In this document: positions 3,001 through 51,200 of the stretch, in pieces | Position numbering within the stretch: position 1 is the stretch's first letter | How the letters are laid out: each line of letters begins with the position of its first letter | Assembly: GCA_036172245.1 (NCBI GenBank) | Contig: JAYWIR010000018.1 | Location: 2,976,001 to 3,040,000, forward strand | DNA length: 64,000 bases | From: Raillietiella orientalis | Lineage: Eukaryota | Direction of reading: 5' to 3' | Position numbers and translations under genes: made by a program | Notes under the pieces: generated by a model | Told to the model about the DNA's origin: nothing | The model's database searches: none | What the model saw: only the letters and a program-made list of their open reading frames with translations

Positions 3001-4878
3001 TGAACGACTTGGACAGCTGGATCACGAACTCGCCAATTCGCAATCCATAAACGTGTCCGACTTGCAAACGGCTTACGGCAGCAACCAGGGACATGTGGGA
3101 CTCGAAGCACAGGACAAACGGTTTAAAATGTCACTAATGGCAACCATGAAGAATGAAATTTTCACAAACCTTTTTTTTCTCAAGGAGCAGTTCTCCCCCA
3201 TTGGAGCACCGGATTGGAATAAGAAAGGAAACAGGGAGGGGAAAAAGAGTTTCTAATCGCGAGCCAAAGTCTTCCTATAAAAGTTGTACGTTGTCTCCCA
3301 TTTCAATGAGCTTGTATATTGGAAAAGTTGGTGCCATACCTCTTTTATATGCATGCAAGGAGATTCTGACAGTTTGGTACATCAAACAGACAGTCGCTCT
3401 TTCCTTTGAAAAAGATTCTCATGAGTTTTCTGCTTTCCCCCTCCTAAATAGTAGGGATCCGACCTTTTTATTTTATTTTATTTCTTCACATATTACTAAA
3501 GTTAACAAAAGCGCCCGTTCCCTACAGTTTCTTATCCCTCTAATCGTTTACCTAGGCAACGACAAAGTTTGGATTCCATTGTTGCCACACGTTTTCTTCC
3601 TGGCTTTTTTTTTCTTTTAATTTCCTGCCGAATCATCAGCAAAATGAACAAATAGATGGATCCAAAGTTTTGAAGAGTTTCATTGATGACTTGCTAACTC
3701 CATGTGCAGATACTTAGCAAAATGGTGATGGTGGGTAGTTTCCAAGAGCGAATCTGGTCTTCTGCGATACTCTCGCTTTCACACTGCCTTCTTTTTGCAT
3801 GTTGTTCTTTCCTATCTCCCCCCCCCCCCCTTTTCCGTTTGTTTGTTTGCTTGAATGGTTGTTTCAATTAACCACTGTGCATCAGCGCGAATGCGAGTAC
3901 AAATAAAGCAGCGACAAAGCGTGACGCAATGGATGAAAAAATCCTGTCAGAAAGGATATATATATGTACATACATACATACACATACGGGGACGGACGTT
4001 AGGTAAGGAAGAGTTCCACGGAAAGTCCCCGGATGCCATGAATAAACCACGCATCTCTACTGGATGCGACTCGCAGGATCAGCGAACTCGGCTCGTTTAA
4101 GAACTCCCCTTTCTGCCCTTTTCGTAGAATCGTCATCTCTGCTTGTCTCCATTTTTCTTGCTGCTTATTCATCGGGTGCTCGTGATTGCTGTAATTTCTC
4201 TCTCCTCCCCCATTTTCGTTTCTCTCGAGGTGGGGGGTAGGGCAGGACAGGCAGGTCCAGGAGGAGCACACAGACTGGAGATGCATGTGAGAACCCTGCG
4301 CTGCTGTGGCGTCGGAATGACCGACCCCTGGGAAAGGTACCAGCGAGTGCGGCGGGCTCGTAAGACGTGGAGGCGGACCGGACCACCTTGGGAACCGGTG
4401 TCTACTGCCTCTTCCTGGAGCACGCAGAATAAAAGGGAAGCAAGGGCATCACGCATCTGAGGCGCGCGAACGGCGTCGTCGTCCCTCGGGGCTACCGCCA
4501 GAGAGAGCCGGCAGCAGCAGTATCGCAGGGAGAGGCAGCGGGCGGAAGAACTCGGGGTAGTGACGGAGAGGCGACGGTCTCTTCCCTTGTTTCCCTGTGA
4601 CCCTGGAAGTCTTTCTTCCCACCTCCCACCGGATATATGCTGGAAGGACCTTGTGTGCTATCCCGAACACCGAAGAACCTCCAGACGAAAGCAAAGGGAG
4701 AGGGGTGCCACGGCAAACGCGTCAGCGGAGGCAGAAGAGGGGTGCAAAGAGTGCGCCGCCCTAAGGTGGACGTGCAGGCTAACCACCTGCTTCCTCTTCC
4801 CCGGCCCTCCCTCCCCTTGCGCGCCCACCACCCACACCCACCGTTCTCCTCCCTTTCGGTCTCGTAAGCCGGACATAC

Positions 4879-4993
4879 CTTGGAACAAGGCTTCGAACGA
4901 GGAAGCTGCTGCTGCTGCTGCCGCTGCTCCAAACGCTGCGACGACGAAGGAGTAGACGTGTACCACCGCCAGCAGGTAGACCGGCGGCGCCAT
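4879..4993 (-). CDS. Possible first coding exon (signal peptide) of an unidentified secreted or membrane protein; remaining exons not resolved
   Basis: ATG at 4993 gives MAPPVYLLAVVHVYSFVVAAFGAAAAAAASSFEALFQ, followed by a good donor AAG|GTATGT. It lies downstream of a GC-rich region. No recognisable domain in candidate downstream exons. Confidence 0.35.
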
Positions 4994-5400
4994 CGTGGGG
5001 TGGGCGGGCGGGCGGCACGCACGAGTCGGCGACGAGGGGCGGACCGCACTGCACGCCGCACGCCGTTCTGCAAGGATGGGAGGGAGGAGGAGGAGGAGGA
5101 GGGAGACAGGGAAGAGAACGCTTTGCACGCGCCGCCGCCGCCGACTCCTCTGCTCTCCCGCTCGCTTGCTTGCTCGCTCGCTCTCCGCGCGCGCGAGTTC
5201 TCCGGACAGGGAATTGATCCCGATTAGTGCCCGCCGCCGCGCTCTTCGGGAAGGAAGTCTGGAAGGAGTGCTGCTCCTCCAGGGGGCATGCGCGCGTGCG
5301 CGCGCGATCGATCGATCGCCTCGCCTGCGCACGCATTCCCCCGCCGCTCTCCAGCAAAGAGAGCCCGCTCTCCTTCTTCGCTCTTCCGCTGCTAGGATTG
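4900..5400. repeat. GC-rich low-complexity region with (GCT)n, (GGA)n, (GCC)n and (CG)n runs
   Basis: Direct reading, e.g. gctgctgctgctgctg at ~4905-4920 and ggaggaggaggaggagga at ~5082-5100. Confidence 0.7.
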
Positions 5401-6671
5401 ACGGCGCTCGCTTCAGGGAAGCCGAGGCGGAAGGATCCGCCCATCCCCCTACGGTCCCCGTGCGCCTTCTCTCCCCTACACTCATCCGCTAGGGGACGGC
5501 GCTAAATCTCGCAGGTCGCAGTGCGAGACCTTGGATGGAACACTCAGGAGGGGTCTTCCCCTCCTGACAGATCTCCGGATTGACGTGGGAGTCCAGCAGC
5601 GAAATCTGGGCGCTTCCACACAGCGGCACGACGTCCCGTAACCGAGGTCAAGTGAAGACGACCCAAATCTTGCACACGAGGCTCTCTACAGGAAAGATTC
5701 GCAGCTTCCGAAGCAAACTTCCGCTACACCTCAACAGGTCTCTTTCTGGAAGGCAGAGTCTCCTTCTCCTGCTTTCAGCACATAAAAAGAAGGGAGCCGA
5801 GTGCAGGCTTCCATCCGTCGACACGCTCCCAGGGAACACGCGTTCCCTTTACCAGAGCCGTAGGCAGCGCAGGCTGGAATCCTATCTGGACGACCCTTCT
5901 GATAGACCTCGGCAGCACGAACGGGGGAGCAAGATTCAACGCCTAAATGCTCAAAAAGAATATACTGGTTGTTCCAGAATTTTCCCATCGCTCTCGGAAG
6001 ATTTTTCGGATTTTTTCGGTTCTTGCTCCTTTCTTCCCGGAAGGCCAAGAACCCAATCCGACTGTTTCAGCTTTCTCTTTTGCATGGTTAGGATGCGTCA
6101 ACTGCGGGCTGGAAGTAACCCTACGCGGAGCATTCTCAACCACTTTAGGCATAGCGGTGAATGTGAGCAATCTTTGCCATCATTGAGACGACAGAATTTC
6201 GTCCTTCATCAACCAATCCTACTGTACTCCTACTACTTCATGGGATCTTTCCTCGAGTTGAACGGGTGAAATACCAACACAATAAACAGAGCGCATTCGC
6301 ATTTATTTCGGAAAATATGAAAAAGCATTTTTTGTCTTTACTGAGAATATTTTCGTTCCCAAATGCTCCAATCCTCGGCTTTTCTACCAGACTTCTTCCA
6401 TAATGGTTAAATTCCTGCAGATCATTCCCTTCAAGTCACATTGGGCCGAACATCCTTTCTACTAGGTGATTACACTCACAATTCCTCTCTCGACAACTAT
6501 CGTGCAGCACAAGTATGTTCTCAAGGAAGGCTGGAGGTCGAAAAAGACGTTAGGTTTACAATTCAGCAGCACTTCTGCAAGAAAGAATAACACAACAGGG
6601 TGGTGACAGTGTACTGACGCTGCCCAAAGAGGTCTTCCAGTATTGCAACACATAGTGGTTGGTCTCCGGAC

Positions 6672-10988: not shown

Positions 10989-13900
10989 AGTTCTGGCCCT
11001 GCTGCAGGAGATTCACGCACTCTCCGAGCAGCTAGCGGCCGATCTGGCAGTTCGCGCAGGCGGGACGCTCCATTGGAGGTCAGACTCCCAGAATACTTGC
11101 GGTGTGGCATTCCTTGTCCGGGGCAGGGTGGCGGGGGCGGTGCGGAGCGTTTGTTTCGACAAGGAAGGTCGTGTGGGCCAACTTGTTCTCAAGTGGTCCG
11201 AATCGATCGACCTTGTCGTCACGAACGTGTAAGCGCCAAGCGGCTCGGCGCGTCACACCAAGAAACTCGAGTTTTTCGAGAGACTGCGCGACCGCTGGCT
11301 CAGCAACTCCGACCGTGACGTGGCTCACCTCGTAGCCGGGGACTTCAACGTCCACGCGCTATCGGAGGAGTCTCACCGTCGCCGGGAGAAGCAGTTGGTG
11401 AACGAGGTGTGAGCGTCCGTGCACTCCTCGAATTTGCTGGCCGACGATCCCGGGGTGCGTGCTTTGCCGGACCATGTGTTACTCGACGATCACCTGCATT
11501 GTCGGGTGGGTCGAAGAGGTCCCGTTCCGTCCGAGCTTTCCGACCACCACAGGCTGGATTTGGAGATACTCCCTCCTGGCAAGGGTCCTCCGACGCACGT
11601 CTGGAGGTTGCCGGCCGACTGGCTAAGGAATCCGGTGGCTGCGGAGCACCTCCGCCAGCATCTCCGAAGCTTGACCATTTGGGAGCTCATGGACTGGGAC
11701 GATCTGAAAAGATCGGTTTGCGAGTTCTGCAGCCGGTTCCCCTTGCGCCTGCTTCCCCGTGGCTTCGGAGAAGGTGTGGCCAACAGCAGAGAGTTTCTGC
11801 AGGCCCGCCAATTCTCCCGATGCCCGGACGTCCGGTACCTTGCGAAGTACAAGGCCAAGGCCGAGCGCCAGGTCTGGCAGTCAGGAGCGGCTTGTCTGCT
11901 CGACGACCAGGGCCTGGAGTGCTCGGGCGCAGCCTACGTTCGCCGCCTCCTGAAGCGCTACTACTGCTCCTTGTATGCTAGGGAGCCGACGGAACGCAGT
12001 CTCTCGGAGCTGCTTCTGCCGGCGGATTCCCCTGCGGTCGACGAGGAGGAACGCGCCACTCTTGACTTGCCCTTCACGGCGGAAGAAGTGTCTTCCGCCA
12101 TAGAGGACCTCAAGAAGCGCAAGGCTCCAGGTGAGGATGGTCTGCCTGCGGAGTTCTTCCAGTGCTTCGCGGCAGAACTCATCCCCCTGGTGCTGAGGCT
12201 TTCTGCGCTGATGCGAGAGACGGGCAATGTCCCGGCCTCGTTTCGCTCAGCAAGGGTGCGTCTCTTGCCGAAAGGCGGAGACATGCGCCATTTAAGCAAC
12301 TGGCGTCCGATCACTTTGGTGAATGCGGACGTCAAGTTGTTCTCCAGGCTCTGGGTCGCGCGCCTAGGCAGGATGGCTGGATCCGTGGTAAGCCCGGAGC
12401 AGTTCTACGCTGTTCCCGGGCGGTCCATGGAGCCGAACCTGTTCTTCGCGCGGACGTGGCTCGAGCTGCAACGTTGCGTGGCGCACGACAGCCAGGCAAC
12501 CGCATCTGCGGCTGCCGAGGCTAGGCGTCGCTGCATTCGGCCTGAGGAAGCGCTGGGTGCCTTGGCGGTCGCGGTCGATCTCCGCAAGGCGTTCGACTGC
12601 GTAAATCAGGATCTCCTCCTGGAGCTCCTGGAACGCCTCGGTCTCCCGGTGCACCTTGTGGCCTATTTGCGCGCTTGCTGGCGCCACGCGCTCATTTCGA
12701 TCTTTTTCAGCGGCTGCCATGTGTACGGCGTGCCGGTGCGGCGGGGCATCAGGCAGGGCGACAGCTTAAGCCCGTTGCTCTTCAGCATCTTCTTTGAGTT
12801 GGTGCTGAGGGCGCACAGTCTGACGCTGGCCAAACTGCCGAGCTCTTGTCCAGGAACGCCGTCCGTGGCGGCCTATGCCGACGACCTGCTTCTCCTTTTA
12901 CCCATGACCACCCCGGAGTTTAGTCTTGAGGATTTCTTCGAGCTGATTCGCCGGGGAGCGGGCATGAGCGTAAACCGGAGCAAGAGCGTGGTCGTTCCTA
13001 TTGGTGCGGCGTGGGAGGGGCAGTCCGACTGGATCCGCCTGGGGATCCTGACCGCTTCGTCCATCTGGGCGTTCCGCTGGGGAACATCAGCCCAGTGGAA
13101 GTGTGGTCGGACTGCCTAGGGAAGGCTACGAGTGCTCTGAGCCCGTTCCACCATGGCAGGTTCGTCCTGCCGGAACGGGCCGCGATATGGAACACCTTCA
13201 TTGCCCCCCTCTTACGCCCCCTGCTTTTTGTTTGCCCGTGCCCCTACTCGGCCAAGCTCCAGGCGCACAGCCTGTTGAGGAACGCTCTGTGGGGACCTGC
13301 GAGGTCCAGGATCCGCCTCAAAGACTTGGCGGCTCCGCGTCGGGATTCCGGCTTAGGCATCCTGACGCTTGAGAGAATCGAGCTGCAGGTGCAGCTTCGG
13401 ATGTTGGCCCTGTGCACCAACCTTTGGTCCACTCCGTGGTGCGCTCCCGCGCGCCTGCTTCTGCGGCGCTGCACAGGCAGCGATGGACTTCTGTCGCTGC
13501 GGCCGCACACGGTGCGCGCCACGAGAAGCTTCGGTTTCCCCTTGAAACCCCTCTACCGGCTCCTGGCAGCCCAGGAATGGATCTCCTGCCGCCCAACGAA
13601 CTTTGAAGCCAGGCGGCAGGAACCGTTGCATGGCTGGGCAAAGCACCAGGATGTTTCCCTCATGGAACTCCGTTGCTCTCACCTCTCCCCGTACTGCACG
13701 GTGGATGAGGTGTGCAACAACCAGGAGGTGTGGACCCGCATGGCCGTTACCCTCCTCGCCGACGCACTGTCAGCCCTCAGCGCAAGAGATGACAGCTGCG
13801 AACCGGCGAGATGGGAGGTCGCCTGCACCATCGCAGGAACAACACGACCTATTGGCGGCTGGAGGACTTGCGAGCTGGAGGACGCCGCCACTCCTCGCCA

Positions 13901-14664
13901 CGTTCCGAAGGGACTCCTTCGGTGGAGTGAACACTTAAGTGTGCCCCCCGAAGAACTTGTGGTCCCACCTTCCTGTTTGAACACATCTGTGTTCCCCCTT
14001 TCGTGGAAGCAGGACGTGATCATGATGGTGCATTGGGGTTTTCACTCCAACCAGCGCACGAACCTTGTTTCCGGGGGAGTTGTCTCCCCAAACTGTAAGC
14101 GGTGCGGGGAAGTGGAAACGCTCCCGCACCTGCTCTTGGACTGCGGTGTCCTCCAAGGACTGTGGCAGAGACTGGCCTCAGCTATCCTGCACCAGGGGGA
14201 TACCGCAACAGACTTGATGCGCCGCTTCATCACTCCAGGCGGCCTTTCTTTAGGTGCTGTCGTTGCAACCGTGTGTTGCACCCGCGCCATCGACAAGACC
14301 CAACGAGAGTTGGAGAAGCTGGCCATCCTTCGTCAGCCCACCGGATTAGCCAGCGCAAGCATGTCGTCGGCTGCCTAGTGGGACCACCTACCAGAGAGCG
14401 TGAGCAGAGAGATCGCCGGCATCCATCGCCGGTTATGAAAGGAAGGAACGGCCGAACCAAAGACCCCTGTCCCCTGCCCTCCATATTTTTATTTTTATTT
14501 TTTATAGTAGTGTATTTGTGGTCCCCTCCCCCCCGTTCCGGACTTTCGGTATACCGACCTGCGTGTCGGCGATCCCACCCCCTTCGTCTCTTGTCTTTCC
14601 CTTTGTCCAAGAACACTGTTCCCGGATAGTTTTTAATAAACGCCCCGGCGCACCCGGGTGATAA
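10989..14664 (+). mobile_element. L1/Tx1-like non-LTR retrotransposon, element A (5'-truncated within the APE endonuclease; ORF2 disrupted)
   Basis: APE motifs LALLQE, GVAFL, NV*AP, AGDFN, DHV, SDH. RT motifs KAPGEDG, WRPITL, VDLRKAFD, GIRQGDSLSPLLF, YADD. C-terminal CKRCGEVETLPHLLLDC. 12-bp TSD acagcccctgcc at 10977-10988 and 14665-14676; absent from the other units. In-frame stops in the endonuclease and a frameshift near 13050. Confidence 0.95.
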
Positions 14665-27545: not shown

Positions 27546-28085
27546 GAGCCACACAACACCAGACCTGCCGGGACGCTGGGACGCAGCCCGGCGTGGCAGT
27601 TCTCGGCAGTGAAAGTGGATGGGGGAAAAACAAAAAGAAAAGTAAACCAGTAAAAAAAAAGAAGCTGTTTTTGGAGGGAAGGGATGGGATCACAGTTCAC
27701 TGGGAGGAGGGTGCATCCTTAGTAGGATACCCTCGAGGTCCTCCTTCAATATTCCCAGCTGGGGCCATCCAATAGCTCTCCGCAGGAAGCGAACAGCATA
27801 TGGGATGACGTCCATTACGGTGGGATCTTTATCTTCGGCATTACTCCAGTCCGCCACGATATCACGGATGCATCAAAGTGCTGCGAGGGCTGCGGCTGCA
27901 CTGAGGGGGTCCCGCACGAAGAGAAGACTGTAAACATTCCTGGGGTTGCCCCCTTCCGGTATTCCGAGGGCCGTTCCAAGACGATCCCAAAGCATCCGGA
28001 CGGCAGGGCAGTCAACTAGGAGGTGGGGGAGCGACTCCCGCTCCCCACACCTGGCACACGCAGGATTTACTCTTCCCCGCGACTA
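27546..28085 (-). mobile_element. 3' fragment of an L1/Tx1-like element (element E: C-terminal CCHC region and 3' UTR)
   Basis: Minus strand reads RGRVNPACARCGERESLPHLLVDCPAVRMLWDRLGTALGI, then a pyrimidine-rich UTR and the family stem-loop. The terminal AATAAA and hairpin are missing. Confidence 0.85.
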
Positions 28086-28168
28086 ATTAACGCGTCGCGC
28101 CATGGTTCGGATGGTCGGGTGATGGAGGGAGCCCTTGCGGTCGCTGTCGACTCGCGCAAAGCTTTCGA

Positions 28169-31100
28169 TTTTCACCCGGATTTCTCCGGGTCGTTTATTA
28201 AAAAATAAACTTTATAAAGAAATTATTTATGGCTGTGGCAATGCTCCAGCCAGAAGCGAAGAACCACGTAGCCTGCCAATTCACCGGTTTCTAGACCGGT
28301 ACGGTCCACCAAGGCAGCAGGGGAAAGGGGAAAAACAAAAAACTAAACAAAAAGAAACAAAGGGTGGGAGGGAACGGGAAGGGATCACTGATGCTGCTGG
28401 TGCCGCATCATCCCTCTCAGGATGCTGGCAAGCTCTTGTTTGTTGTGAACATCCAGGTGGGGCCATCGCGACGCCCTCCTCAGGAATTCGGAGGCGCACT
28501 GGATGGCTTCCTGATCGCTAGGTCCTCCCGTCGCCGTGCTCCATGCGGCGACGATCCCACGAAGGCAGCACAAGGCTGCTATCGAGGACGCTGGCCGGAG
28601 GGCGTCGGCAACGAAGAAGGCTTTTAGTGCGTCCCTGGGGTTGCTGCAAGGGATACCGATGGCCGCGGCAAAGCGGAACCAAAGGGGCCGAAGGGCAACA
28701 CAATCCACTAGGAGGTGGGGGAGGGACTCCCGTTCCCCGCACCTTACACAATTGGGATCCACCGCTCCCCAGGTCCAGTGGTGTCGACGGGCGTTGCAGG
28801 GGAGTCCCCAGTGCTGCAACAGGAATGCCGACTCTTGCCATTTTAGGGGGAGGATGGAAGTGTTCATAAGAATCGGGGGCCACTTCAGATGTTCAATCGG
28901 AACATCCAGCAGCGCTCCCCAGCGCAGAAGTCCATTAGGAGGCGTACTCGGGGTCGCAGCATCAGTTAGCTGGCCCGTCTTCCACTCTCTCTGCTTCTTC
29001 TCCTTCCCGGAGATTTTTATTGTAACCTCCCACTTTGCCGCAACATCGCTGTCCTGATGTTCCACTAGGGAGTCCAGCGCAGCAGCGAGGGGGGTTCTTC
29101 CTGACCACACTCTCTTCTTAGGATCCTCCAGGATCTCACGGAGCGTGCAACTTCTGTAACACCCAAACAGGAACCTTCGTTCCTGATGGGAGGGTTGCAT
29201 GCCGAACTGTCCCCACGTGCGAACGGTTTCCTGCAACCAGGCACTACCGTTCGCGGGGAGACAGGTGATCCATCCTTGATTTTTCCTTGCCAGCGCAGCC
29301 ACCCTCCGTAGCTGAAGCCCACATCGGTTGATGCGGCGGCGATGGAGTGCAAGAAACGACGTAAGTCCCGTCTTGCCGGTGGCTTGCTGAAGGAGGAGAC
29401 GTGCAGGGACGCACCAACAGGTGCACCACAACTCCGGCACAAGTGCCAAAATCCGGAACTGGAGCTGCAGCTCCAGCCGCTCCAATGTCAGGAGGCCGAG
29501 ACCACCGTCCCGACGCGGAGCGCACAAGTCCTTTAAGCGGACTCGGGCCCTCCCGTTGCCCCAAAGGGCGATACGGAGGAGGTCCTTCGTCCGCTTTTTG
29601 ATCCTCTCTGTGGGGGGGCAAACAAAAAGCAGGGAACGGAGGAGAGGAGCCGCGAACGTGTTCCAAACCGCGGCCCGTTCAGGCAGGAAAAACCTGCCGC
29701 CTCGGAACGGGCCGATAGCCGTCTCTACTTTTTGAAGGCAGCCGGACCACGCTTCCGCAGGGGAGTAGTCCCCCAACGGCACACCAAGGTACTTGAAGTA
29801 CCTCACCGTGGGGATTCCCAAACGGACCCAGTCCTGCTGCCCTGCCCACGCCGCACCAACTGGCATCACGCACGACTTCGCCCTGTTCACCGTGAGCCCG
29901 GTTCCTCGATTCAGCAGGTCGAAGAACTTCTCGACCGCCGAAGCCGGGGTGGACATAGGGAGCAGTAGCAGCAGGTCGTCCGCATATGCTGAAACCGCAG
30001 GCGTTCCGGCGCATTCATGCGGCAGGTGCGCCAGAGTTTCCTTGCACGCTTTCAGTACCAACTCAAAGTAGGTACTGAAGAGCAAGGGGCTCAGGCTGTC
30101 TCCTTGCCGGATCCCACGTCGCACCGGCACGCCGTGAACAGTATGCCCGCTGAAAGTAACATTGATTTGCGCATCGCGCCAGCTAGAGCGCAGATAGGCC
30201 AATAATGAGGCCGGGAAGCCCAAGCGTTCCAAAAGCTCCAGCAGGAGATTCTGGTCGACGCTGTCGAATGCTTTACGCAAGTCGACAGCGACCGCAAGTG
30301 CTCCCTCCCCCATCCGACCATCCGTCGCATGACTGACGGACTCACCGGAATTCCCGGTGCGCATCAAGCCCCTGTCGTGTTGGAGCTCTAGCCAGGTGGA
30401 AGCGTGGAACAGGTTCGCCTCCATGCTTCGCCCCGGAACAGCATACTTCTGTTCCGGGCTGATGAAGGCGTTTGCAACCCGTCCCAAGCGCTCAGCCCAA
30501 ACCTTAGCTATCAACTTGGCATCCGCATTCACTATTGTGATGGGACGCCAGTTGTTCATGCTCCTCAGATCTCCTCCCTTAGGGAGAAGCCGCACCTTTG
30601 CCGAACGAAACGAGGCGGGAACGTCACCTGTCTCGCGTATCAGCAAGGTGAGTTGATGTACCATGGGGGTAAGCTCAGCCGCGAAAGTTTGGTAAAACTC
30701 CGCGGACAGGCCGTCCTCCCCTGGAGCCTTGCGCCTCTTGAGCTTTCCGATGGCCGAGATGATCTCGCCCATCGTGAAAGGCTCGTCGAGGGACTTTTTC
30801 TCCTCTTCCCCGATCGCAGGAGCGCCTTCCGGAAGCAGGAGTCGTGAGAAATCCCGCTCGGGAGGCGTTCTTGCGTACAGGGAGGAGTAAAAACGCCGCA
30901 GCGGACCGCGGATCTGAGCGGGTGCCGAATGCTCCTGGCCCTGATCGTCCAGCAAGCTGGCCGATCCTGACTTCCAGGCTTGCCTCTCGGCTCCCGCTTT
31001 GTATTCCGCCAGCCTGCGGATGTCGGGGGTCCTGGCGTAACGGCGAGCCTGCAGATAGGCTCGTTCGTTACGTACCCCGTCCCCAAATCCCGAAGGTAGG

Positions 31101-31399
31101 CGGTGCCGAGGGAACTGGTCGCAGGACTCCTGGACCGACCGTTTGAAGCGGTCCCAATCCTGAAGTGTCTGCATCCTGAAGCTCCGTATAAACGTGCGGA
31201 GATGTTCCGTCGCGTCCGGGAGCTTCAGCCAGTCCCCTGGCAAACGCCACGCTGACGAGGGGGGGCCCTTGTCGCGCGGAAGGATTTCAATCACGATTGG
31301 TCGATGGTCGGACAACTCGCACGGTAACTTGCAGCGCCTACCCACACGAGTGCATAGGTGCTCGTCAAAGAACACGTGATCGATGTTGTCCTCCATTCC
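28169..31399 (-). mobile_element. L1/Tx1-like element B (5'-truncated, uninterrupted ORF2 remnant) inserted antisense into element C
   Basis: 9-bp TSD agctttcga at 28160-28168 and 31400-31408. 3' end on the minus strand is aataaacgacccggagaaatccgggtgaaaa. Confidence 0.95.
28385..31396 (-). CDS. ORF2 remnant of element B: end of APE endonuclease, reverse transcriptase, C-terminal CCHC finger (1003 aa)
   Basis: IDHVF...SDH, KAPGEDG, WRPITIVNADAK, VDLRKAFD, GIRQGDSLSPLLF, YADD, FKYLG and CVRCGERESLPHLLVDC, with no internal stop. Confidence 0.93.
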   Translation of the reverse strand: MEDNIDHVFFDEHLCTRVGRRCKLPCELSDHRPIVIEILPRDKGPPSSAWRLPGDWLKLPDATEHLRTFIRSFRMQTLQDWDRFKRSVQESCDQFPRHRLPSGFGDGVRNERAYLQARRYARTPDIRRLAEYKAGAERQAWKSGSASLLDDQGQEHSAPAQIRGPLRRFYSSLYARTPPERDFSRLLLPEGAPAIGEEEKKSLDEPFTMGEIISAIGKLKRRKAPGEDGLSAEFYQTFAAELTPMVHQLTLLIRETGDVPASFRSAKVRLLPKGGDLRSMNNWRPITIVNADAKLIAKVWAERLGRVANAFISPEQKYAVPGRSMEANLFHASTWLELQHDRGLMRTGNSGESVSHATDGRMGEGALAVAVDLRKAFDSVDQNLLLELLERLGFPASLLAYLRSSWRDAQINVTFSGHTVHGVPVRRGIRQGDSLSPLLFSTYFELVLKACKETLAHLPHECAGTPAVSAYADDLLLLLPMSTPASAVEKFFDLLNRGTGLTVNRAKSCVMPVGAAWAGQQDWVRLGIPTVRYFKYLGVPLGDYSPAEAWSGCLQKVETAIGPFRGGRFFLPERAAVWNTFAAPLLRSLLFVCPPTERIKKRTKDLLRIALWGNGRARVRLKDLCAPRRDGGLGLLTLERLELQLQFRILALVPELWCTCWCVPARLLLQQATGKTGLTSFLALHRRRINRCGLQLRRVAALARKNQGWITCLPANGSAWLQETVRTWGQFGMQPSHQERRFLFGCYRSCTLREILEDPKKRVWSGRTPLAAALDSLVEHQDSDVAAKWEVTIKISGKEKKQREWKTGQLTDAATPSTPPNGLLRWGALLDVPIEHLKWPPILMNTSILPLKWQESAFLLQHWGLPCNARRHHWTWGAVDPNCVRCGERESLPHLLVDCVALRPLWFRFAAAIGIPCSNPRDALKAFFVADALRPASSIAALCCLRGIVAAWSTATGGPSDQEAIQCASEFLRRASRWPHLDVHNKQELASILRGMMRHQQHQ

Positions 31400-33291
31400 A
31401 GCTTTCGACTGCGTCGACCAGGAACTCCTTCTGGAGCTTCTGGAGCGCTTGGAATTTCCGGCCGTCTTCCTGGCCTACCTGCGCTCCAGCTGGAGCGACG
31501 CGATAATCAACCTTTCTCTCAGCGGGCAGTCCGTGTACGGCGTGCCGGTGCGGCGTGGGATACGGCAGGGAGACAGCCTGAGCCGTTTACTCTTCAGTAC
31601 CTACTTTGAGTTGGTACTGAAAGCGTATAGGGAAGCTCTGGCGCACCTGCCGCACGACTGTGCCGGTACGCCGGCCGTTTCAGCGTACGCGGACGACCTT
31701 CTGCTGCTGCTCCCTATGTCCACCCCGGCTTCGGCGGTCGAGGAGTTCTACGACCTGCTGAATCGGGGAACCGGACTTACGGTGAACAGGGCGAAGTCGT
31801 AAGTAATGCCAGTTGGTGCGGCGTGGGCAGGGCAGCAGGACTGGGTCCGTTTGCGGATCCCCACGGTGAGGTACTTCAAGTACCTTGGTGTGCCGTTGGG
31901 GGACTATTCCCCTGCGGAAGCGTGGTCCGGCTGCCTCCAGAAAGCAGAGACGGCGGTCTCGGTCTCCTGACATTGGAGTGGCTGGAGCTTCAGCTCCAGT
32001 TCCGGATGTTGGCCGTTGTGCCGGAGTTGTGGTGCGCCTGCTGGTGCGTCCCTGCACGTATCCTCGTCAAGAAATCCACCGGGAAGACGGGACTCACGTC
32101 CTTTCTTTCACTCCATCGCTCCCGCATCAATCGATGTGGGCTCCAGCTGCGGAGGGTGGCTGCCTTGGTTCGGAAAAACCACGGATGGATCACCTGTCGC
32201 CCCGCGAACGGTAGTGCCTGGTTGCAGAAACCGTTTGCACGTGGACACAGTGCGGCATGCAACGCGCCCAACAGGAACGACGGTTCCTGTTTAGGTGCTA
32301 CAGAAGTTGCACGCTCCGAGAGATCCTGGAGGATCTAAAGAAGAGAGCGTGGTCAGGAAGAACCCCCCTCGCTGCTGCGCTGGCCTCCCTAGTGGAAGAT
32401 CAGGACAGCGATGTTGCGGCGAAGTGGGAGGTTAATGTAACCATCTCCGGTAAGGAGAAGAAGCAGGGAGAGTGGAAGACGGGCCAGTTAACAGACGCTG
32501 CGACCCCAAGTACGCCTCCCAATGGACTTCTGCGCTGGGGCGCGCTGCTCGATGTTCCGATTGAACATTTGAAGTGGCCCCCAGTGCTCATGAACACTTC
32601 CGCCCTCCCCTTAAAATGGCAGGAGTCGGCTCTACTGTTGCAGCATCGGGGACTTTCCTGCAACACCCGCCGACACTACTGGACCTGGGGAGCGGTGGAC
32701 CCCAATTGTGTAAGGTGTGGGAGACGGGAGTCCCTCCCCCACCTGCTTGTGGATTGTGTTGCCCTTCGGCCCCTTTGGTTCCGCTTTGCCGCGGCCATCG
32801 GAATCTCCTGCGGCAACCCCAGGGACGCATTGAAAGCCCTCTTCGTTGCCGACGCCCTTCGGCCAGCGGCCCCGATAGCAGCCTTGTGCTGCCTACGCGG
32901 GATCGTCGCCGCATGGAGCACGGCTACGGGAGGATGACGCGATAAGGATGCCATCCAGGGCGCTGCCCAATTCCTGAGGAGGGCGTCGCGATGGCCCCAC
33001 CTGGATCCGCGAATACAAGAAGAGCTTGCCGGCATCCTGAGAAGGATGCAACGGCCCCAGCAGCAACAGTGATCCCTTCCCGTACCCTCCCACTCTTTTT
33101 TTTTTTTTGTTTAGTTTTTTTTGTTTTTCCCCCTTCCCCCTGCTGCCACGGTGGACCGTACCGGTCTGCGAACCGGTGACCCGGCAAGCTCTGTGTTTCT
33201 TCGTGAGTGGCTGGGGCATTGGTCCAGACACTGCACGTCTTTGTAAAAGTTTATTGTTTCAATAAACGCCCCGGCGGAATCCGGGTGAAAA

Positions 33292-33559
33292 TCGAAAGCT
33301 TTACGCAAGTCGACTGCGACCGCAAGGACTCCGAGCGTCACTGCTCCCCATCGGCCTCCCTCCCCCCGTTCAGTAAACAGTCCACGACTCTCTCGACCTA
33401 GCTGAGCCTCGCGTTTTTGCAACTGCCGCAAGCTGCTGGCGAGAAACAGGTTGGTCTCCATGGGTCGTCCGGGGACAGCGTAAGTCAGTTCCGGACTGCC
33501 CACGGATTCCGCCACCCATCCCAGTCGCTCAGCCCAAAGCTTGGCGAGCACCTTCGCGT
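33292..33559 (-). mobile_element. Internal RT fragment of host element E
   Basis: AKVLAKLWAERLG...YAVPGRPMETNLF...LAVAVDLRKAF, cut at the 3' end of element C. Confidence 0.85.
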
Positions 33560-36500
33560 GCAGACGTGTTTTGTTAGCGCTCCGTCTGCGCCTGCTGGGA
33601 AGCCTACATTTGAGTGTGTTTGTTTGTGGTACATAGTCGGTGTCCTATGGCAGGAATGCCTGAGGACACTGCGATGGATATCGGAGGGGGAGAGGCTTGT
33701 TCCTCTCCCCAGCCCACGGAAGTGGGGGCGACCGCCCCCACGGAGGCGAGGCCAACCGCCCCCTTGAAAAAGGGGGCAACTGTGTCCTCGGATACGTCTT
33801 CGACAACGACGAAGACCTGGAGCGCCGTGGCTGCAGCGCCATCACCTGCAGCCATAGCAGAGCAACATGCCTACCTGGAACAAGGATACAAGCCGTCCTT
33901 GATTTATAAGGTAGGCAATTTGTTTGTGGGCAATACCGCTTGCAACTTTGAAAGAGACATGCAGTGGCTTAACATTAAGGAGGAGGACCTGGAAGGTCTT
34001 TCCTTGATGAGTGGGTGTCAGCGGGTGGAGCTGACTTGCAAAGATGCAAGCCTGGCTCAGCGCCTGCTCAATACCCCCATCACGCTGGGAGGCCGAAAGG
34101 TCTTTCCGGTAACTGAGGATCGCTCTATAGTGGCGCACCTTACCGGAGTAACTCTCCGCATGACCAAAACTGGCGTGCAGGAGGAGTTGAAGAAGTACGT
34201 CATGGTGGACGCACTCTGGACCAAGCCCAACGTCTTCCAAACCTATGGAAGACTGTTCAGTGGCATGACCGCAGCGCGTGTGACCGTCCACGAAAACGGT
34301 GGGCTACCCCACAAACTGGACGTCGGCAACGAGACGGTCGACGTCTAGTACGTGAGTAAACCCAAGTACTGTGGAAACTGTGATGCCACAGGGCACCTGA
34401 AAAAAACGGTGCCCTCACATCCAGTGCTTCCACTGGGGGGAGAAGGGCCACCTCCGGAAAGTGTGCCCAAAGCGCGAAACTCCGGCTCCCCCTGCTTTGA
34501 AAAAAGCTAAGGGGAAACGCGCGGAAAAAATGCAGAAGCCCAAAGAGGCAGAAGGAAGGCAAAGTCAAAAGCCAGAGCCCGAAACCTCCCAGCAAACGCC
34601 GGTCGAGAAAACTCCCGACGACGCTGGTGGAAACAGGGGCTGGCGGACGGCGAAGCCAAAAAATAAAAAACTTAAGAAAACCGAAGGCCCGAAAGAGGAG
34701 CCCGCGACGACTCCCTTAAATAGGAGACAGCGCCGCGCATTGCTCCGCGAATGTTCGATCGCCTTGGAGCGCGTAGAGGTCCCAGAGACCGCCAACGGGG
34801 GAGATATCCCCCGCCTCGTTGTCGTCGAAGCCGCGATCACCGAAAGCGAACCCTCTGTGCAAACAGAAGAGGAACTGTGCGACGTGCTCTCCGCAATCGA
34901 GGACGCCGCCTTCCAACAGGCAGCGGAAGAACTCGCGGCCGAACTCGCCGGCCGTGAGAACGGCGCGCGAAAGGCCTTGCGAAGGCCGGCCGCGACCAGG
35001 GCACCTCCGACAGGTGACCACGACCCGGATGCCGGAAGTGCGTCCTCTTCCACGGAGGCGCCTCCCAAGAAGACAGGGCGGAAGTCCAAGAATCCAAAGA
35101 GGCGCATCCCTACGAAGAAGGAGGGGGACGCACCGGCAGCCGAGGGGGAAGCCGGCAGCGTGGGAACGGAGAGAGGGAAATTCCCACTCCCCGCGACCGA
35201 GTAGCTGGCCACCCCCATGGAGGAGGGAGAACCGGTGCACGATGCACCCCCTTCTCCATCCGTCCCGCCCGACCAGGCGGCGGGAGCCTCCTTGCCACAA
35301 TCCCAGGAATAACACCTGGGCTCGCCTGTCGCCGTCGGATACGCGTAGCCTGCTGGAATGTCAACGGGCTAAGCGACGACGGCAACAGACGGGACACAGC
35401 CGCCACCCTGCGTGACTTCGACCTGGCACTCCTGCAGGAGATCGAGAGGATCGCAGGGGGACGGTTGCTGTGGAATGCGGCACCCGATACACCTGCGGCG
35501 TCGAGTTTCTCATGAAGCCGGCGGTCGGCGCTGCCGTGAAGGGCGTGCGCTTCGACGAAGCCGGTTGTGTCGGCCAGCTGATTCTTAAGTGGTCCGACAC
35601 GATCGACCTCGTCGTAACAAACGTGTATGCCCCGAGCGGTCCAGCCAGGTACCAGGAACGTGCGGCGTTCCTGGAAACCCTGGCTGGTGGAAGCGAGCGT
35701 GCGCAGGGCTCACCTGATAGCGGGAGACTTCAATCTCCACCTGCTATCAGGTGATCCCCGCGCACAGGAACGGACGGCTAACGAGTTGTGCGCTGCCATG
35801 CGCACGCGCAACTTGTTAGGGGATCTCCCGGAAATGGTTAGCAGCATCGACCACGTCTTCCTGGATGTCGACCTGTGTTCACGGGTCGGCAAACGGGGGA
35901 AAGTTGCGTCGGAGCTGTCTGACCATTTCCGGTTAATATTCGAGGTGTGCCCGCGCGATAAGGGCCCCCCATCCAGGGCGTGGCGGCTGCCAGGGGACTG
36001 GACGCGACTCTCAGGTGCGAAAGAACACCTTCGCGAATTCCTGAGAGGCGTCACCTTCCGGAATCTCAACGATTGGGACCTTTTTAAGGCCCCGGTCCGC
36101 GAGTTCTGCGAGGAGTTCCCCTTGCACCGCCTGCCCCCCGGATTTGAGGAGGGAGTCCGTAACGAAAGGGCGTATTTGTTTGCCCGTCGTTACGCGAGGA
36201 CCCCCAACGTCCGTCGCCTGGCAGAGTACCGAGCCGGGGCCGAACGCCAAGCCTGGCAACCCGGTCGGCCAGCTTGCTGGACGACCAGGGCCGGGAGCAC
36301 TCGGTCCCGGCTGCAATACGGCACCTCGTGCGGAGATTTTGTTCCTCCCCTTACGCCAGGGACCCCCCGGAGCGAGACGCCTCCCGGAGCTTGCTTCCGG
36401 ATGGTGCCCCGGCAATGGAGGAGGAGGAGAAGGAAAGCCTCGACGAGCCTTTTACCACCGGCGAAATTCTCGCCGATATCAAAAGGCTCAAGAGTCGTAA

Positions 36501-39042
36501 GGCGCCAGGGGAGGACGGCCTGCCCGCGGAGTTCTTCCAGTGCTTCGCGGAAGAGCTGACTCCCCTGGTGCTCGAGTTGACACGGCTGATCCGAAACGAA
36601 GGCGATGTTCCCGCCTCGTTTCGATCAGCCAGGGTGAGGCTCCTTCCCAAGGGAGGAGACCTCAGAAAACTCAGCAACTGGCGTCCGATCACAATTGTGA
36701 ATACGGACGCCAAGCTGATCGCCGGACTGTGGACGTCGCGATTGGGGCAGGTGGCAGACACCATAATTAGCCTGGAGCAGACTTACACTGTTCCCGGGCG
36801 AAGTATGGAGGCCAACCTCTTCGCGAGCACATGGTTTCATGTGCAGAGATGCGAAAATAAGAAAGAGGGAATGATTGGCAGCCCCACTTTGGGGCGTCAG
36901 CCGGGCAGGGATGGCACACCTAGGCGGGGAAGGGGGCCCTAGCGATCGCGGTAGATCTGCACAAAGTGTTCGACTGCGTGGACCAGGATCTCCTGCTGGA
37001 GCTCCTGGATCGCATGGGCTTTCCACCCTCCCTACTGACCTTCTTGCGCTCTTGCTGGCGCAGCGCGCTAATTAATATCTCTTTCAGAGGTCAAATAGCG
37101 TACGGCGTGCCGGTACGGCGGGGCATACGGCGGGGCATACGGCGGGGCGATAGCCTGAGTCCCCTGCTCTTTAGCACCTACTTCGAGTTGGTGCTGAGAG
37201 CGTATAGGGTGACTTTGGCCCCCTTGCCGAGCTCGTGCCCCGGCACGCCCGCCGTAGCAGCTTATGCTGACGATCTTCTGCTCTTGTTGCCAATGTCCAC
37301 CCCGGCAAAGGCAGTTGGGGAATTCTTCGACCTGCTTAGCCGCGGGACCGGACTGCAGGTAAACACGGCCAAGTCGTCGGTGGTGCCAGTTCGTGCGGCG
37401 TGGTCAGGGCAGCAGGACTGGGTCCGTTTGGGGACTATTCCCCTTCGGAAGCGTGGTCCGGCTGCCTCCAAAAAGTTGAGACGGCGATCGGCCCGTTCTT
37501 GGAAGACAAGTTTCTCCTTCCGGAACGGGCCGCGGTGTGGAACGCGTTCGCGGCTCCCATCCTCCGCCCCTTGCTTTTTGTTTGCCCCGTCCCGCCCCAG
37601 TTGAAGAAACGGACAAAGGACCTCCTGAGAATTGCCCTTTGGGGAAGAGGGAGGCCCCGAGTCCCGTTGAAGGACTTGTGTACTCCGTGTCGGGATGGCG
37701 GTCTCGGCCTCTCGACACTGGAGCGAGTGGAGATTCAGCTGCGATGCCGCACCCTGGCCATCGCAGCGAAGTTATGGAGCACCCCATGGTGCGTTCCGGC
37801 CCGCCTCCTTGCCAACCATGTATCCGGGATGGAAGGTTTCGCGTCGCATCTTCTGTGCCGTGGCCCGAAGATCAAGAGATGAGGTCTTCTCCTGGGACGC
37901 ATGGCAAGTCTGGCTAACAAAAACGGCTGGATGGTATGCAGGCCCGCCAACTCCGTATGGCTGGAGGAGACAACTGGCACGTGGGCGAAGATCAACGAGA
38001 AGAGCCACGAGAAGTGGAACTGCCTGCGACACGGCTCTTCGCCCGCTGCACTCTGCGGAAGATATTAGAATGTAGCTCAAGGAGCACGTGGGCAGAGACA
38101 ACCCCACTAGCTACGGCGATGCCCTTTCTGAGGAGGGCGCTCACCAGCAGCCGCATGCCTAGGTGGCAAGTCTCCTGCCGTATCGCAGGCAGAGAGAAAC
38201 TGATGAGCGGCTGGACTACGGGGCAGCTGGCTGACGCCACGACCCGAAGTGTCCTCCCGCGCGGACTAATGAGAAGGGGCGAGCTGCTAGGCATCCCTAC
38301 GGATGACCTGAAGTGGCCCCCGGTATTCATTGGCTCGAGGATCCTCCCCCTGAAGTGGCAGGAGTCGGCGCTTCTGTTGTTGCATTGGGGCCTACCCTGC
38401 AACGCACGCCGCCACCACTGGACACGGGGTCGAGTGAATCCCGCCTGCATCAGGTGCGGGGAGCTGGAATCCCTCCTCCACCTCCTTGTTGATTGTGCTG
38501 CCCTCCGACCCTTGTCGGAGGGCAGCACAGGGAATTCCCTGTGGGAACGTCTTGGTACCTCCCTACGGATCCAGGTGGGCAGCCAGCCCAAAGACGTTTT
38601 TCGGCTTCTGTTCGTGCAGGACGCCCTGCGACCAGCCGCAGCCCTGGAGGCACTCTGCTGCATCTTAGGGATTGTGACGTGCTGGAGCGACGTGAAAAGA
38701 CCGAGCCACGATAAGGATGCCGTCGAACTTGCAATCTGCTACCTGGCGATTGCGACCAGATGGCCCCACTCGGGAATTATACCGACGGACCACGAGGGAA
38801 TCCTGGAAAGGATGGATTCTCCTCGCAACACAAAGTGATCCCTTCCACACCCTCCCAAATCTTTTTGTTTTTCTGTTTAATTTTTCTTTTTGTTTCCCCC
38901 ACCCCTTCCGCAGCCGAGGGGAGTCGCGCCGGTCTGCGTACCGGCGACCCGGCAGGTCCTGTTGTGTTGGCCGTAGTGGGACCTAGTACCTCGAATTATA
39001 GTGACTTTATAATAAACGCCTCGGCGTGACCGGGTGGCAACT
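33560..39042 (+). mobile_element. Near full-length but decayed L1/Tx1-like element D (ORF1 with zinc knuckles; ORF2 APE-RT-CCHC)
   Basis: ORF1 ~33647-35204 carries two CCHC-like knuckles (CGNCDATGHLKK.C and CFHWGEKGHLRKVC) with a stop and a frameshift. ORF2 runs from IRVACWNVNGL (~35340) through LLQE, NVYAP, GDFN, SDH and YADD to 38838, with several frameshifts. 3' end aataaacgcctcggcgtgaccgggtg. Degenerate 13-bp TSD agcaccttcgcgt / agcaacttcccgt. Confidence 0.92.
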
Positions 39043-39190
39043 AGCAACTTCCCGTAAGCATTCATTACAGTGATGGGACGCAAGTTGCCAACGTTGCGCG
39101 TCTCCTCCCTTGGGTAGCAGACGTACTTTACCTGACCTAAACGAGTTGGGGGCATCCCCACGTTTATGGATCCACATACAAGCAATCCTA
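39043..39190 (-). mobile_element. 5'-most RT fragment of host element E
   Basis: RGDAPNSFRSGKVRLLPKGGD...NLRPITVMNAYGKLL, collinear with the fragment that resumes at 33559. Confidence 0.8.
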
Positions 39191-48283: not shown

Positions 48284-51200
48284 AGTTCGTTAATTACAGT
48301 ATTTTTCAAAGAATTTGGGATCGAAGTGTTGCTTTCAATAATTTTTCAAAGCTGAATCCTCAAAACGAGATATAAGGTCAAAATTCGCGGAATGGTTTCC
48401 GATGAAACCGTACCAAAGTCCTGGGGGATGCACACGGGTTCGACGGATGAACCGCAATCAAAGAGGTAGGACAGTTGGCGAGGTGATGGACGAATTGAGC
48501 GCTTTCCGATAGAAGACTGGCAGCCGACAGATATCGGGAATCTTCCTCGCAGATTGCAAAAAGTAGTCGATTCTTGGTTACTAAGGAAATTAGCAGGGAG
48601 CAGTAAACCAATTAGTGACTTCTAGTTCTTCAAGGGAAAGGGGAGTTGTTTCTCACTAGGGAGGAAGAGTGTCCTAGAAGAAAGTAGCAATTTCCGAGGA
48701 AAGACTCGAAGAAAGGTTCTTTAAGAGGTTTCCATGGCGAGCTGGTGTTGTCAATGGAGGACGGGTTGTGTGTGCCATCCGGACGAACTTGCGGACTGTC
48801 CTTTCTCTCGTGTTCAAAATCTTACTAGCTACCAATTCTTATGACTTTCCAACGCCGTTTCCCAAAATACCAACAAGCATTTCCATTCCAAACACTCTTC
48901 CAGAACAGACGGAAACAACAAACCCGCAGGCTAGCCACGGCTAGCGGCCCTAAGTGGCCGGACCGCGTCCACGACTACATGGCAAAGCAGACGTGGTTAG
49001 CACAGAGAAAGGAGATGCACACAGGATCCTCACGCCTGCTACCGATGGCATATTGTCTCTCCAATATCCCACGGTAGCAATCGTAGCTTTCTGCTGCGCT
49101 GCCGCGAAACCTCAAACACGGTCACAAAGGATACAACGCGGTCACGTTGGTTTCCGCAGAAAGTCCCATGCACACGCGTGTCTTCGCTTTCCCCCGTCCG
49201 TCTTCCCTTTCCTGCCCAGCGCGAACCCGTACCAGGGATATGTAGGTAGGAAAATCTTGAAACGATCGTATGTAACGCACATCGCCCTTTTCGACACCGT
49301 CACTCTGTCGAATGTTGGCGTGTGAGGAATTCCTGGAACAACCTGACTCGTGGAAATGAGGTGCTCAAAATCAACTCTGCACAAAGTTGGCCCGAAATTT
49401 TCTGAATTGCAAATGAAATTCCCTATGCCTTGAAGCACTCGCCACACCTCCGACAGCAGAAAGGACAAAGAACACAACGCAGCAGCGCGTGCGTTCCGCC
49501 TTTCCTTCATTATGGCATGTCGTCACCTCTTTTCGTCTTCAGTGTCCTAAGATGAGCAACGCACGCAGGCAGACAACTCATCCGCGAGATCTGAAATCGG
49601 TCCTTCAAGATGCTGCGTACGTTATGTTCACAGCATCTCCGTTTTCCCACTGTTAGGTAAACGACCTGTTTCGGCATCCATCGTTGGACCTGGGTCTCTG
49701 CACCTCGTTTGCCCTGCACCGTTGCTCTTCTTCGAGATTGAACTAATTAACTTCATTTTGTATCTTCGTAACGACAAGTTCGGCACACTGTCAACTTTCG
49801 GCAGCCTATCCTCATATTCCCACGTGCGGTCACTTTTCCCACACTGTTTCCGAGCATGCAGTACTTCACAAGTATACGTCATCTTCCCCGTTAGGTAGCA
49901 CCGAACTGAATGATCAAAGGAAACAAAAAAAAAGGCACCTTGATGCAATCGCAGTATTTAGCTTTCATTTGTTTGACTTTGTTCGATGCATCCCCCATTT
50001 TGATGATGGTCTTTCAACTTGGTTGACCAGCTGACGGGTTGCCTCCTTGCATACCTACGCAACGCCGGTATGCCAGCAGAGCAACCCGAACTGGTGGAGG
50101 ATGACTGCCGTGACCACAGCTCCAGCCCCGCCTTCGCATTTTGCTACTTCTCTGAATCACACCGTTTTCCTTCTCTCCATATTATGGAGTCAGCGAAAAC
50201 CAAACACCCTTGAGATGGAAAACGCGGGAAACACATTGAAACGCTTTCGAAAGATTTCCTCTAAGCTCTCCACTGGACGCGAGGCGTTCCGTTTTCGGAT
50301 GGGCATCAAAAGAGATGGCAATCCAAAGCAGCGGTTACATGTGAACATGTACCATCCGGAGGATTGGGCTTTTCCAGCTACACTCTCAACCAATCTTTGA
50401 ACACTACAGCCATGAGAATGCAAACGCGATTTCCAGTCTTGCTTGCAGTGGGCTGTTGTCGCTGTTCCTTTCGAACAAATGGAAATACGAATGCTGTCCA
50501 TCTGTATTCTTCGAAGGCTAATATTCACACATGCGCCTTCTCACCCGGACGGTGTCGTTTCCACCTGTGTCGTCGCATGCAACCATCACATATGGTCCGC
50601 CAATTGTTTCCTGCATGTCGTGTGTGTAGGACAATCGCTCAGGAAGTGGAAGCAGCTTGTCCGTTTCTTTACTTCCGACATGAGTGGTTGTCCAGTCGTG
50701 CGGCACAGGGGCACCAACGAAGATCCGTGTCTCTCCACTATACCACTCATGGCCTGGCGGCTCAAAATTTCCAATGACGATTTGTGACTGCAGCCTTACA
50801 GCGCTCACAACTTGCGTTTCACAACCCCACGTCACGTTGCGTGTCGCTAATGGTGTGCTCCTCCTTTTGCTTGCTACGCACGTGTGAGCACGTGGGATGT
50901 ACACCAGAAGGGCACACCCTTCTGGTGTACAATGCACCAATCTCTTCTTGCTGCAGAGAAATCGACATTCGTCATTCTCATGAAGATGAAAAGAACACCC
51001 TTTCGTGAGAAGGTGTTGGTCACTACGCGCCCTCCACATATATAAAGTGCATGTCTGGATTGAAATCTCTTCGTTCGAACTGTTGGCAGACCACAGGCCT
51101 TCGTCAAAACGTGTGAAGCGTTAGAGATTTGCTGCATTCCGAGTTTCATTTGACTATGGACATTCAAGGAGTGACAGTTGCTCAGAAGTAGGGGCCAGTT

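Follow-up and report, generated by a model that had tools for sequence, protein, structure and literature searches.

Two antisense LINE insertions at one nucleotide of their own family's reverse transcriptase KAFD motif in Raillietiella orientalis

Can a long interspersed nuclear element (LINE) be directed against the reverse transcriptase (RT) gene of its own family? The question is raised by a stretch of 64,000 nucleotides of Raillietiella orientalis (assembly GCA_036172245.1, contig JAYWIR010000018.1, positions 2,976,001 to 3,040,000 of the forward strand), referred to below as the window and numbered from its first letter. Within an array of tandem units, positions 27546-39178 are occupied by a three-deep nest of GC-rich LINEs, in which element B lies in element C, C lies in element E and element D also lies in E. 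The 3' ends of B and C abut the same nucleotide of the codons for the RT motif KAFD. The nest was mapped by blastn and tblastn with B as query, and its parts, together with a comparator element A, are as follows.

28169..31399, minus strand: element B, a 5'-truncated LINE (end of the endonuclease, RT, C-terminal zinc region and 3' untranslated region, UTR) with an unbroken 1004-codon frame
28160..28168, plus strand: target-site duplication of B, copy adjoining its 3' end (AGCTTTCGA, the final KAFD codons in C)
31400..31408, plus strand: target-site duplication of B, copy adjoining its truncated 5' end
28102..28168, plus strand: element C, 5' piece (67 nt, HGSDGRVMEGALAVAVDSRKAFD), like B at 57 of 67 positions, with a start good to a few bases
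31400..33291, plus strand: element C, rest to the 3' end ...CCGGGTGAAAA; 5'-truncated, frame broken in several places, 87-88% identical to B
33292..33559, minus strand: element E, RT residues about 291-379, stopping exactly at ...LAVAVDLRKAFD against the 3' end of C
39041..39178, minus strand: element E, RT residues about 252-297, cut off from the 33292..33559 piece by D
27546..28101, minus strand: element E, C-terminal residues about 870-997 and the 3' UTR without its last ~73 nt
33560..39040, plus strand: element D, a near full-length divergent member with frameshifts, antisense in E at another RT position
30264..30274, minus strand: the uninterrupted KAFD codons of B itself (AAAGCATTCGA), one base off the two hit sites
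10989..14664, plus strand: element A (comparator), a divergent member lying in a tandem unit between perfect 12-bp duplications (ACAGCCCCTGCC), its own KAFD codons (AAGGCGTTCGA) uninterrupted

Both 3' junctions read GGGTGAAAA directly followed by TCGAAAGCT (...CCGGGTGAAAA followed by TCGAAAGCT...), antisense to codons for ...AVDxRKAFD. On the minus strand, the B junction at 28169/28168 runs ...aataaacgacccggagaaatccgggtgaaaa then tcgaaagctttgcgcgagtcgac; on the plus strand, the C junction at 33291/33292 runs ...aataaacgccccggcggaatccgggtgaaaa then tcgaaagctttacgcaagtcgac. The preliminary description of the window had claimed two antisense insertions at one nucleotide of the KAFD motif, the first flanked by a clean target-site duplication with a collinear host, and both points can be read directly at these positions. 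The 9-mer AGCTTTCGA is found at 28160-28168 and again at 31400-31408; the frame of the host C carries HGSDGRVMEGALAVAVDSRKAFD ahead of B and picks up again with CVDQELLLELLERL... past it, and when B and one copy of the duplication (3240 nt) are taken out, ...AVAVDSRKAFDCVDQELLLELLERL... is restored. Beside the end of C, element E reads ...GVLAVAVDLRKAFD on the minus strand and its match stops at the last base of C. In the whole 64 kb the 9-mer occurs three times, at the two copies flanking B and at the C/E junction. Two insertions are thus read, one of B into C and one of C (or its source copy) into an E-type element, both at the same bond of the KAFD Asp codon and both in antisense.

The two hit sites both carry the 11-mer AAAGCTTTCGA inside a 33-nt context that is identical at 30 of 33 positions. 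Five RT motif regions of the family were recognized in the window (four pattern matches and the variant of D) and the 11-mer is present in two of them, which are the two that were hit. The three unhit sites, those of A, D and B itself, read AAGGCGTTCGA, AAAGTGTTCGA and AAAGCATTCGA, respectively, and are one or two bases off within the duplicated 9 bp. Both B/C-type 3' ends of the window (2/2) are thus at the KAFD site. Shorter motifs are common, with 65 occurrences of TTTCGA and 22 of CTTTCGA, and the 8-mer GCTTTCGA is found once in each of five tandem units, all unoccupied. By our own arithmetic, a coincidence by chance would have a probability of ~3e-4 per nested pair, for one combination of position and orientation among about 2 x 1950 in C; a preference for a short motif would make it far more likely.

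B spans 3231 nt and is translated in 1004 codons with no stop. The RVT_1 domain was detected in B by Pfam (E=8.3e-23, 81.6 bits, cut-off 29.6), zf-RVT scored below threshold (21.1 bits against a cut-off of 27.5), and the nearest solved structure by sequence is human L1 ORF2p (8uw3_A, E=2.9e-41 over the RT). The Exo_endo_phos domain was found in D as two frameshifted pieces (E=0.0047 and 0.0065), both under the 24.5-bit cut-off, and A retains an N-terminus of endonuclease type starting with LLQEIH... and including ...SDH, which we take to be endonuclease motifs; PF03372 is present in most database homologues of the family. Among the 348 database proteins with E<=1e-10, the sole close one is P0002 (70% identity, a metagenome fragment), the rest showing at most 32% identity; those that are named are unclassified RT proteins of vertebrates and plants, also at <=32%. 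Target-site duplications and variable 5' truncation are both observed: the duplications match at 9/9 bp for B, 12/12 bp for A and about 12/15 bp for D, with none for C, and A, B, C and E are truncated at differing points. Judged from its sequence, the family appears to be an endonuclease-type LINE (of the apurinic/apyrimidinic endonuclease class), with an RT match above the cut-off and endonuclease matches below theirs. B and C are its most similar pair in the window (87-88% identity), B being 66% identical to A and 71% to D, as the preliminary description had it; its statement that A and D use other sites is likewise borne out, A lying in a tandem unit (12-bp duplication) and D elsewhere in E.

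The 3' ends of the family are uniform. The four complete ones, those of A, B, C and D (14635-14664, 28169-28199, 33261-33291 and 39011-39040), all have AATAAACG, a stem-loop of 5 to 7 bp and a 4-nt tail, a terminus pattern with four matches in the window against none expected. Two of them are detailed here.

28173..28199, minus strand: 3' terminus of B, AATAAA and the conserved stem-loop, 4 nt short of the end
33261..33287, plus strand: 3' terminus of C, AATAAA and stem-loop as in B

None of the seven pairs of the 3' stem covaries. No poly(A) or simple-repeat tail was present at any of the four termini, which end in GAAAA, GAAAA, ATAA and GCAA right after the stem-loop. This arrangement suggests that the 3' end of the family could be recognized by its structure, although the RT is L1-like. 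As a separate observation, the 5' third of D (33614-35204) contains two open frames of 244 and 267 amino acids ahead of the endonuclease, with no Pfam match; they could represent an ORF1 (first open reading frame) of unknown type.

From these data, the likeliest mechanism, tentatively proposed with a confidence a little short of even, is ordinary target-primed reverse transcription started by a sequence-dependent nick from the endonuclease of the B/C lineage. The endonuclease would nick the sense strand of the RT gene of a resident relative after ...AAAGCTTTCGA, within the Asp codon of KAFD, the predicted bond lying in the duplex context ...CGCAAAGCTTTCGACTGCG... The freed 3' OH would then prime complementary DNA synthesis at the 3' end of the element RNA, composed of AATAAA, the stem-loop and GUGAAAA, and a second nick on the other strand, 9 bp away, would generate the 9-bp duplication. 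C (or its source copy) would have entered the divergent element E at its KAFD site first, with the loss of ~1.4 kb of E at the 5' junction, and the younger B would have entered C later at the homologous nucleotide. The open 1004-codon frame of B and the broken frame of C fit this order of arrival. By our own reading, the primer ...TTTCGA-3' and the RNA end ...GUGAAAA share no microhomology that fits the observed junction. We infer the positions of the nicks, the choice of the site by an endonuclease since truncated away, a recognition length of 9 bp or more and the unity of E as a single element.

That E is one element is suggested by the order and orientation of its pieces, each of which, for the greater part of its extent, is 66-73% identical to A, B, C or D, the 41 nt at the junction reaching 90%. 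The two RT pieces on either side of D overlap by ~15 bp, identical at 12 of 15 positions, and this overlap is read as a decayed target duplication of D. Residues about 380-869 of E (~1.4 kb) are absent exactly at the 5' end of C, on the side and in the direction expected of a target deletion accompanying the insertion of C. At its own 3' end, E has lost the final ~73 nt of its UTR, including AATAAA and the stem-loop. Since the nest replaces 918 bp of a tandem unit and E lacks these last nucleotides, the true 3' junction of E was probably removed by a later deletion.

Several observations weigh against site-dependent nicking by the B/C lineage. Only two events are available and both belong to one nest, the host of B being C itself. 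No target duplication is detectable for C, because residues about 380-869 of E are missing at its 5' side, which abuts E ~1.4 kb away. The endonuclease of the B/C sub-lineage is absent from the window, B and C being both truncated. A and D, which belong to the same family, do not display such a preference and share no obvious nick motif, and the insertion of D, antisense in E as well yet at another place, is a sign that the family tends to nest in general. Perfect sites can stay empty, since a contig of sequencing run X1 with a joint at 31410/33291 is best read as an uninterrupted RT of the family carrying the same 11-mer, with GAT for Asp. Furthermore, the window was chosen for this coincidence from a very large scan, a selection that makes chance and weak-motif explanations weigh more heavily, and the junctions are taken from the assembly alone. 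With n=2, the data hint at a B/C lineage aiming at the RT motif of its relatives.

Searches for further copies were carried out in other collections. In run X1 (Logan contigs, share of words 0.11), 346 contigs were mapped at 85% likeness; among the matches listed (15 of 20 joints, 6 of 256 loose ends and 8 of 380 pieces), none falls at 28168/28169, and the one at 33291 is the uninterrupted RT mentioned above rather than a further insertion. A metagenome scan with the terminus pattern gave 16 loci, none of them related (0/16), their upstream sequences being unlike the family and bacterial-looking. In viral contigs, the 19-mer junction gave one unrelated match and the protein scan none. Prokaryote genome contigs yielded 28 pattern matches in the protein scan, with no relative among them, and none for the terminus pattern. 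A search with a junction-spanning peptide returned 48 candidates, none of which scored.

In a stronger form of the proposal, B and C would represent a homing LINE lineage with a dedicated target, the nucleotides encoding AVDxxKAFD in the RT of its own family, entered in antisense; we consider this possible but doubtful. Under such a regime, purifying selection on active relatives would keep a multicopy target constant, by analogy with the ribosomal DNA elements that exploit conserved rRNA sites, and single-base variants such as the AAAGCATTCGA of B itself could be escape alleles. The suggestion of the preliminary description that the insertions inactivate competitors finds little support: C, one of the two elements hit, belongs to that sub-lineage too and, assuming that it was hit in place, was by then a dead copy with a truncated 5' end.

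The main rival explanation is a weak nick preference for a short motif, for instance ...TTCGA, combined with insertions that accumulate or survive in transposon islands; as an element contains few such motifs, two nested insertions could fall together, the coincidence having been noticed through the large scan. This could be true, though we would not expect it. It is favoured by the position of all nested insertions (B, C and D) inside family members and in antisense, with D at a different RT position as in general nesting, by the lack of a long common target for A and D, by the unoccupied perfect 11-mer in run X1 and by the precedent of Zepp, the self-nesting of which is described without a known fixed nucleotide in the available parts of PMC8226300 and PMC3446292. 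On the other side, TTTCGA and CTTTCGA are present 65 and 22 times, yet both B/C-type copies occupy the sole two independent sites with the 9- to 11-mer, and A, D and B retain TTCGA unhit at the homologous place. The RT motif may be a dedicated target or one instance of a shorter preferred motif within a transposon nest. Concerning orientation, all three nested copies (B in C, C in E and D in E) are antisense to their host, and the priming strand was therefore the sense strand of the host each time; with n=3, a shared relative orientation could arise by chance in one case out of four.

A second alternative, which we judge improbable, is that the two junctions are not independent, both deriving from one ancestral junction through 3' transduction, a local inverted duplication or gene conversion of a short tract between the conserved 41 nt. 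In agreement with it, the junction regions of B and C form a 98-nt inverted repeat of 82% identity, the antisense RT that follows B, C and D is short (67, 268 and 138 nt) before the next break, and the 5' end of C is just 67 nt from B. However, the host flanks of B and C, alike at 37 of 41 positions beside the junction, diverge beyond this point, the piece of C matching B at 20 of 26 positions and E at 14 of 28, in line with the divergence after ~40 bp noted in the preliminary description. The proximal likeness is explained by conservation of the motif, because the uninterrupted site of B itself matches E equally well (37/41); it is no greater than between unrelated uninterrupted sites. A copied junction is unlikely, given hosts that cease to agree outside the conserved 41 nt: B is flanked by sequence of the B/C type and C by sequence of the E type, which runs collinearly for 268 nt from the junction and for another 138 nt beyond D. 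Moreover, B possesses its 9-bp duplication, with a host that is collinear and in frame on the far side, unlike a transduced tail, and B and C differ from each other by 12%. A simple duplication or transduction of the shared flank, which the preliminary description had named as a possible refutation, is accordingly disfavoured, and B and C are taken as two independent target-primed insertions into hosts of different sub-lineage. Twin priming and template jumping were rejected as sources of these joins: they would yield sense/sense or upstream-inverted joins and not a complete 3' end against an antisense host with a duplication.

Insertion without an endonuclease, at a site that breaks repeatedly or is structured, is very improbable. 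The KAFD codons of C do lie between two GTCGAC palindromes, one on each side of the site. Nevertheless, the single-strand folds predicted for the hit site and for the unhit sites of A and B are similar (-28 to -35 kcal/mol for 80 nt), with nothing distinctive at the nick, and the clean 9-bp duplication of B fits staggered enzymatic nicks, of which, in target-primed reverse transcription, such a duplication is typical. As for an assembly artefact in a repeat-rich inverted region, it is hardly credible: the sole run found (X1) consists of short contigs, but the inverted arms are 88-89% identical rather than identical, and the duplication and the in-frame hosts at the junctions are unlike a chimeric join.

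The setting of the nest is an AT-rich region with six copies of a 6.19-kb tandem unit spanning 6064-52962.

6210, 16088, 22277, 39179, 45361, 51644: starts of the tandem units

The units carry exons for C1 and RhoGAP domains (chimaerin-like) on the minus strand; the C1/RhoGAP exon gave weak chimaerin-like matches only (Atlas, scores <=0.83) and no match in the 'longer' protein search. Units 1 and 2 are 99% identical and the remaining units ~92% identical to unit 2. The units would thus be tandem amplifications of a gene fragment, one duplication being very recent and either later than the neighbourhood of A or inclusive of it. The array is broken by two GC-rich blocks, element A at 10989-14664, with its duplication ACAGCCCCTGCC at unit position 4767-4778, and the LINE nest at 27546-39178, which stands in place of 918 bp of the unit (unit positions 5272-6189). 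Unit 5 contains an extra ~94 bp (50933-51026) between unit positions about 5591 and 5573-5592. Positions 4000-5500, which lie upstream of unit 1, are GC-rich (61%) and of low complexity, contain long open frames on either strand and show no similarity to the family; this stretch may be a CpG-island-like 5' region. An Rfam search of the 64-kb window returned no match.

The closest precedent for sequence-dependent nicking by the B/C lineage is Tx1L of Xenopus laevis, which, according to the available part of PMC1950540, inserts at one sequence of the DNA transposon Tx1D and has an endonuclease that nicks this site specifically in vitro. Tx1L is an endonuclease-type LINE with an exact-nucleotide target inside another transposon (PMC1950540, same part), as B and C would be. 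For B and C, unlike Tx1L, the target would be the RT coding motif of the family itself, in antisense, and the case consists of two junctions known from sequence alone. Transposons are among the LINE targets listed in the accessible text of PMC4640811, where Tx1 and R1 are named as target-specific clades with this endonuclease type. R1 and R2 are comparable to B and C in their precise insertion into a conserved multicopy sequence and differ from them by their target, a host rRNA gene and not a transposon gene; the R1Bm enzyme, an endonuclease of this type too, cleaves its target on both strands, as stated in the extract of PMC1919474.

Self-nesting is known from Zepp and ZeppL, L1-type LINEs of green algae that insert into their own existing copies and form GC-rich nested clusters (PMC3446292, PMC8226300, in their available parts). 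Copies are likewise clustered one inside another here, with B in C, C in E and D in E. The tandem arrays, mostly of 3' ends, that the available part of PMC8226300 describes for Zepp are not seen, all three nested copies being antisense to their host. Here, unlike in Zepp as described in these papers, two copies share one nucleotide of the RT motif. With human LINE-1 ORF2p the family shares 5' truncation and target duplications and, apparently, the layout of endonuclease, RT and C-terminal Cys-rich region. L1 nicks at TTTT/AA and ends in poly(A) (PMC1950540, available part), whereas the present family ends 20-25 nt past AATAAA in a stem-loop and GAAAA, ATAA or GCAA, at target sites that are not T-rich.

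The open-access literature searched yielded no account of a LINE that inserts in antisense at a fixed nucleotide of the RT motif of its own family. If there is no such preference, the locus is a three-level LINE nest, well resolved but ordinary. If the preference is real, a LINE endonuclease would have as its target the sequence encoding the polymerase of its own family, and transposons would provide a safe haven for other transposons, kept constant by selection on the victims; B/C-type ends of the form AATAAACG.CCCGG......CCGGGTGAAAA would then show an excess of TCGAAAGC in their 3' flanks, and the family would offer a tractable system for the evolution of long endonuclease recognition sequences and for competition between sub-lineages. 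Confirmed genome-wide, it would represent a new form of target-specific and self-nesting LINE behaviour, with Tx1L in Tx1D and Zepp as its precedents.

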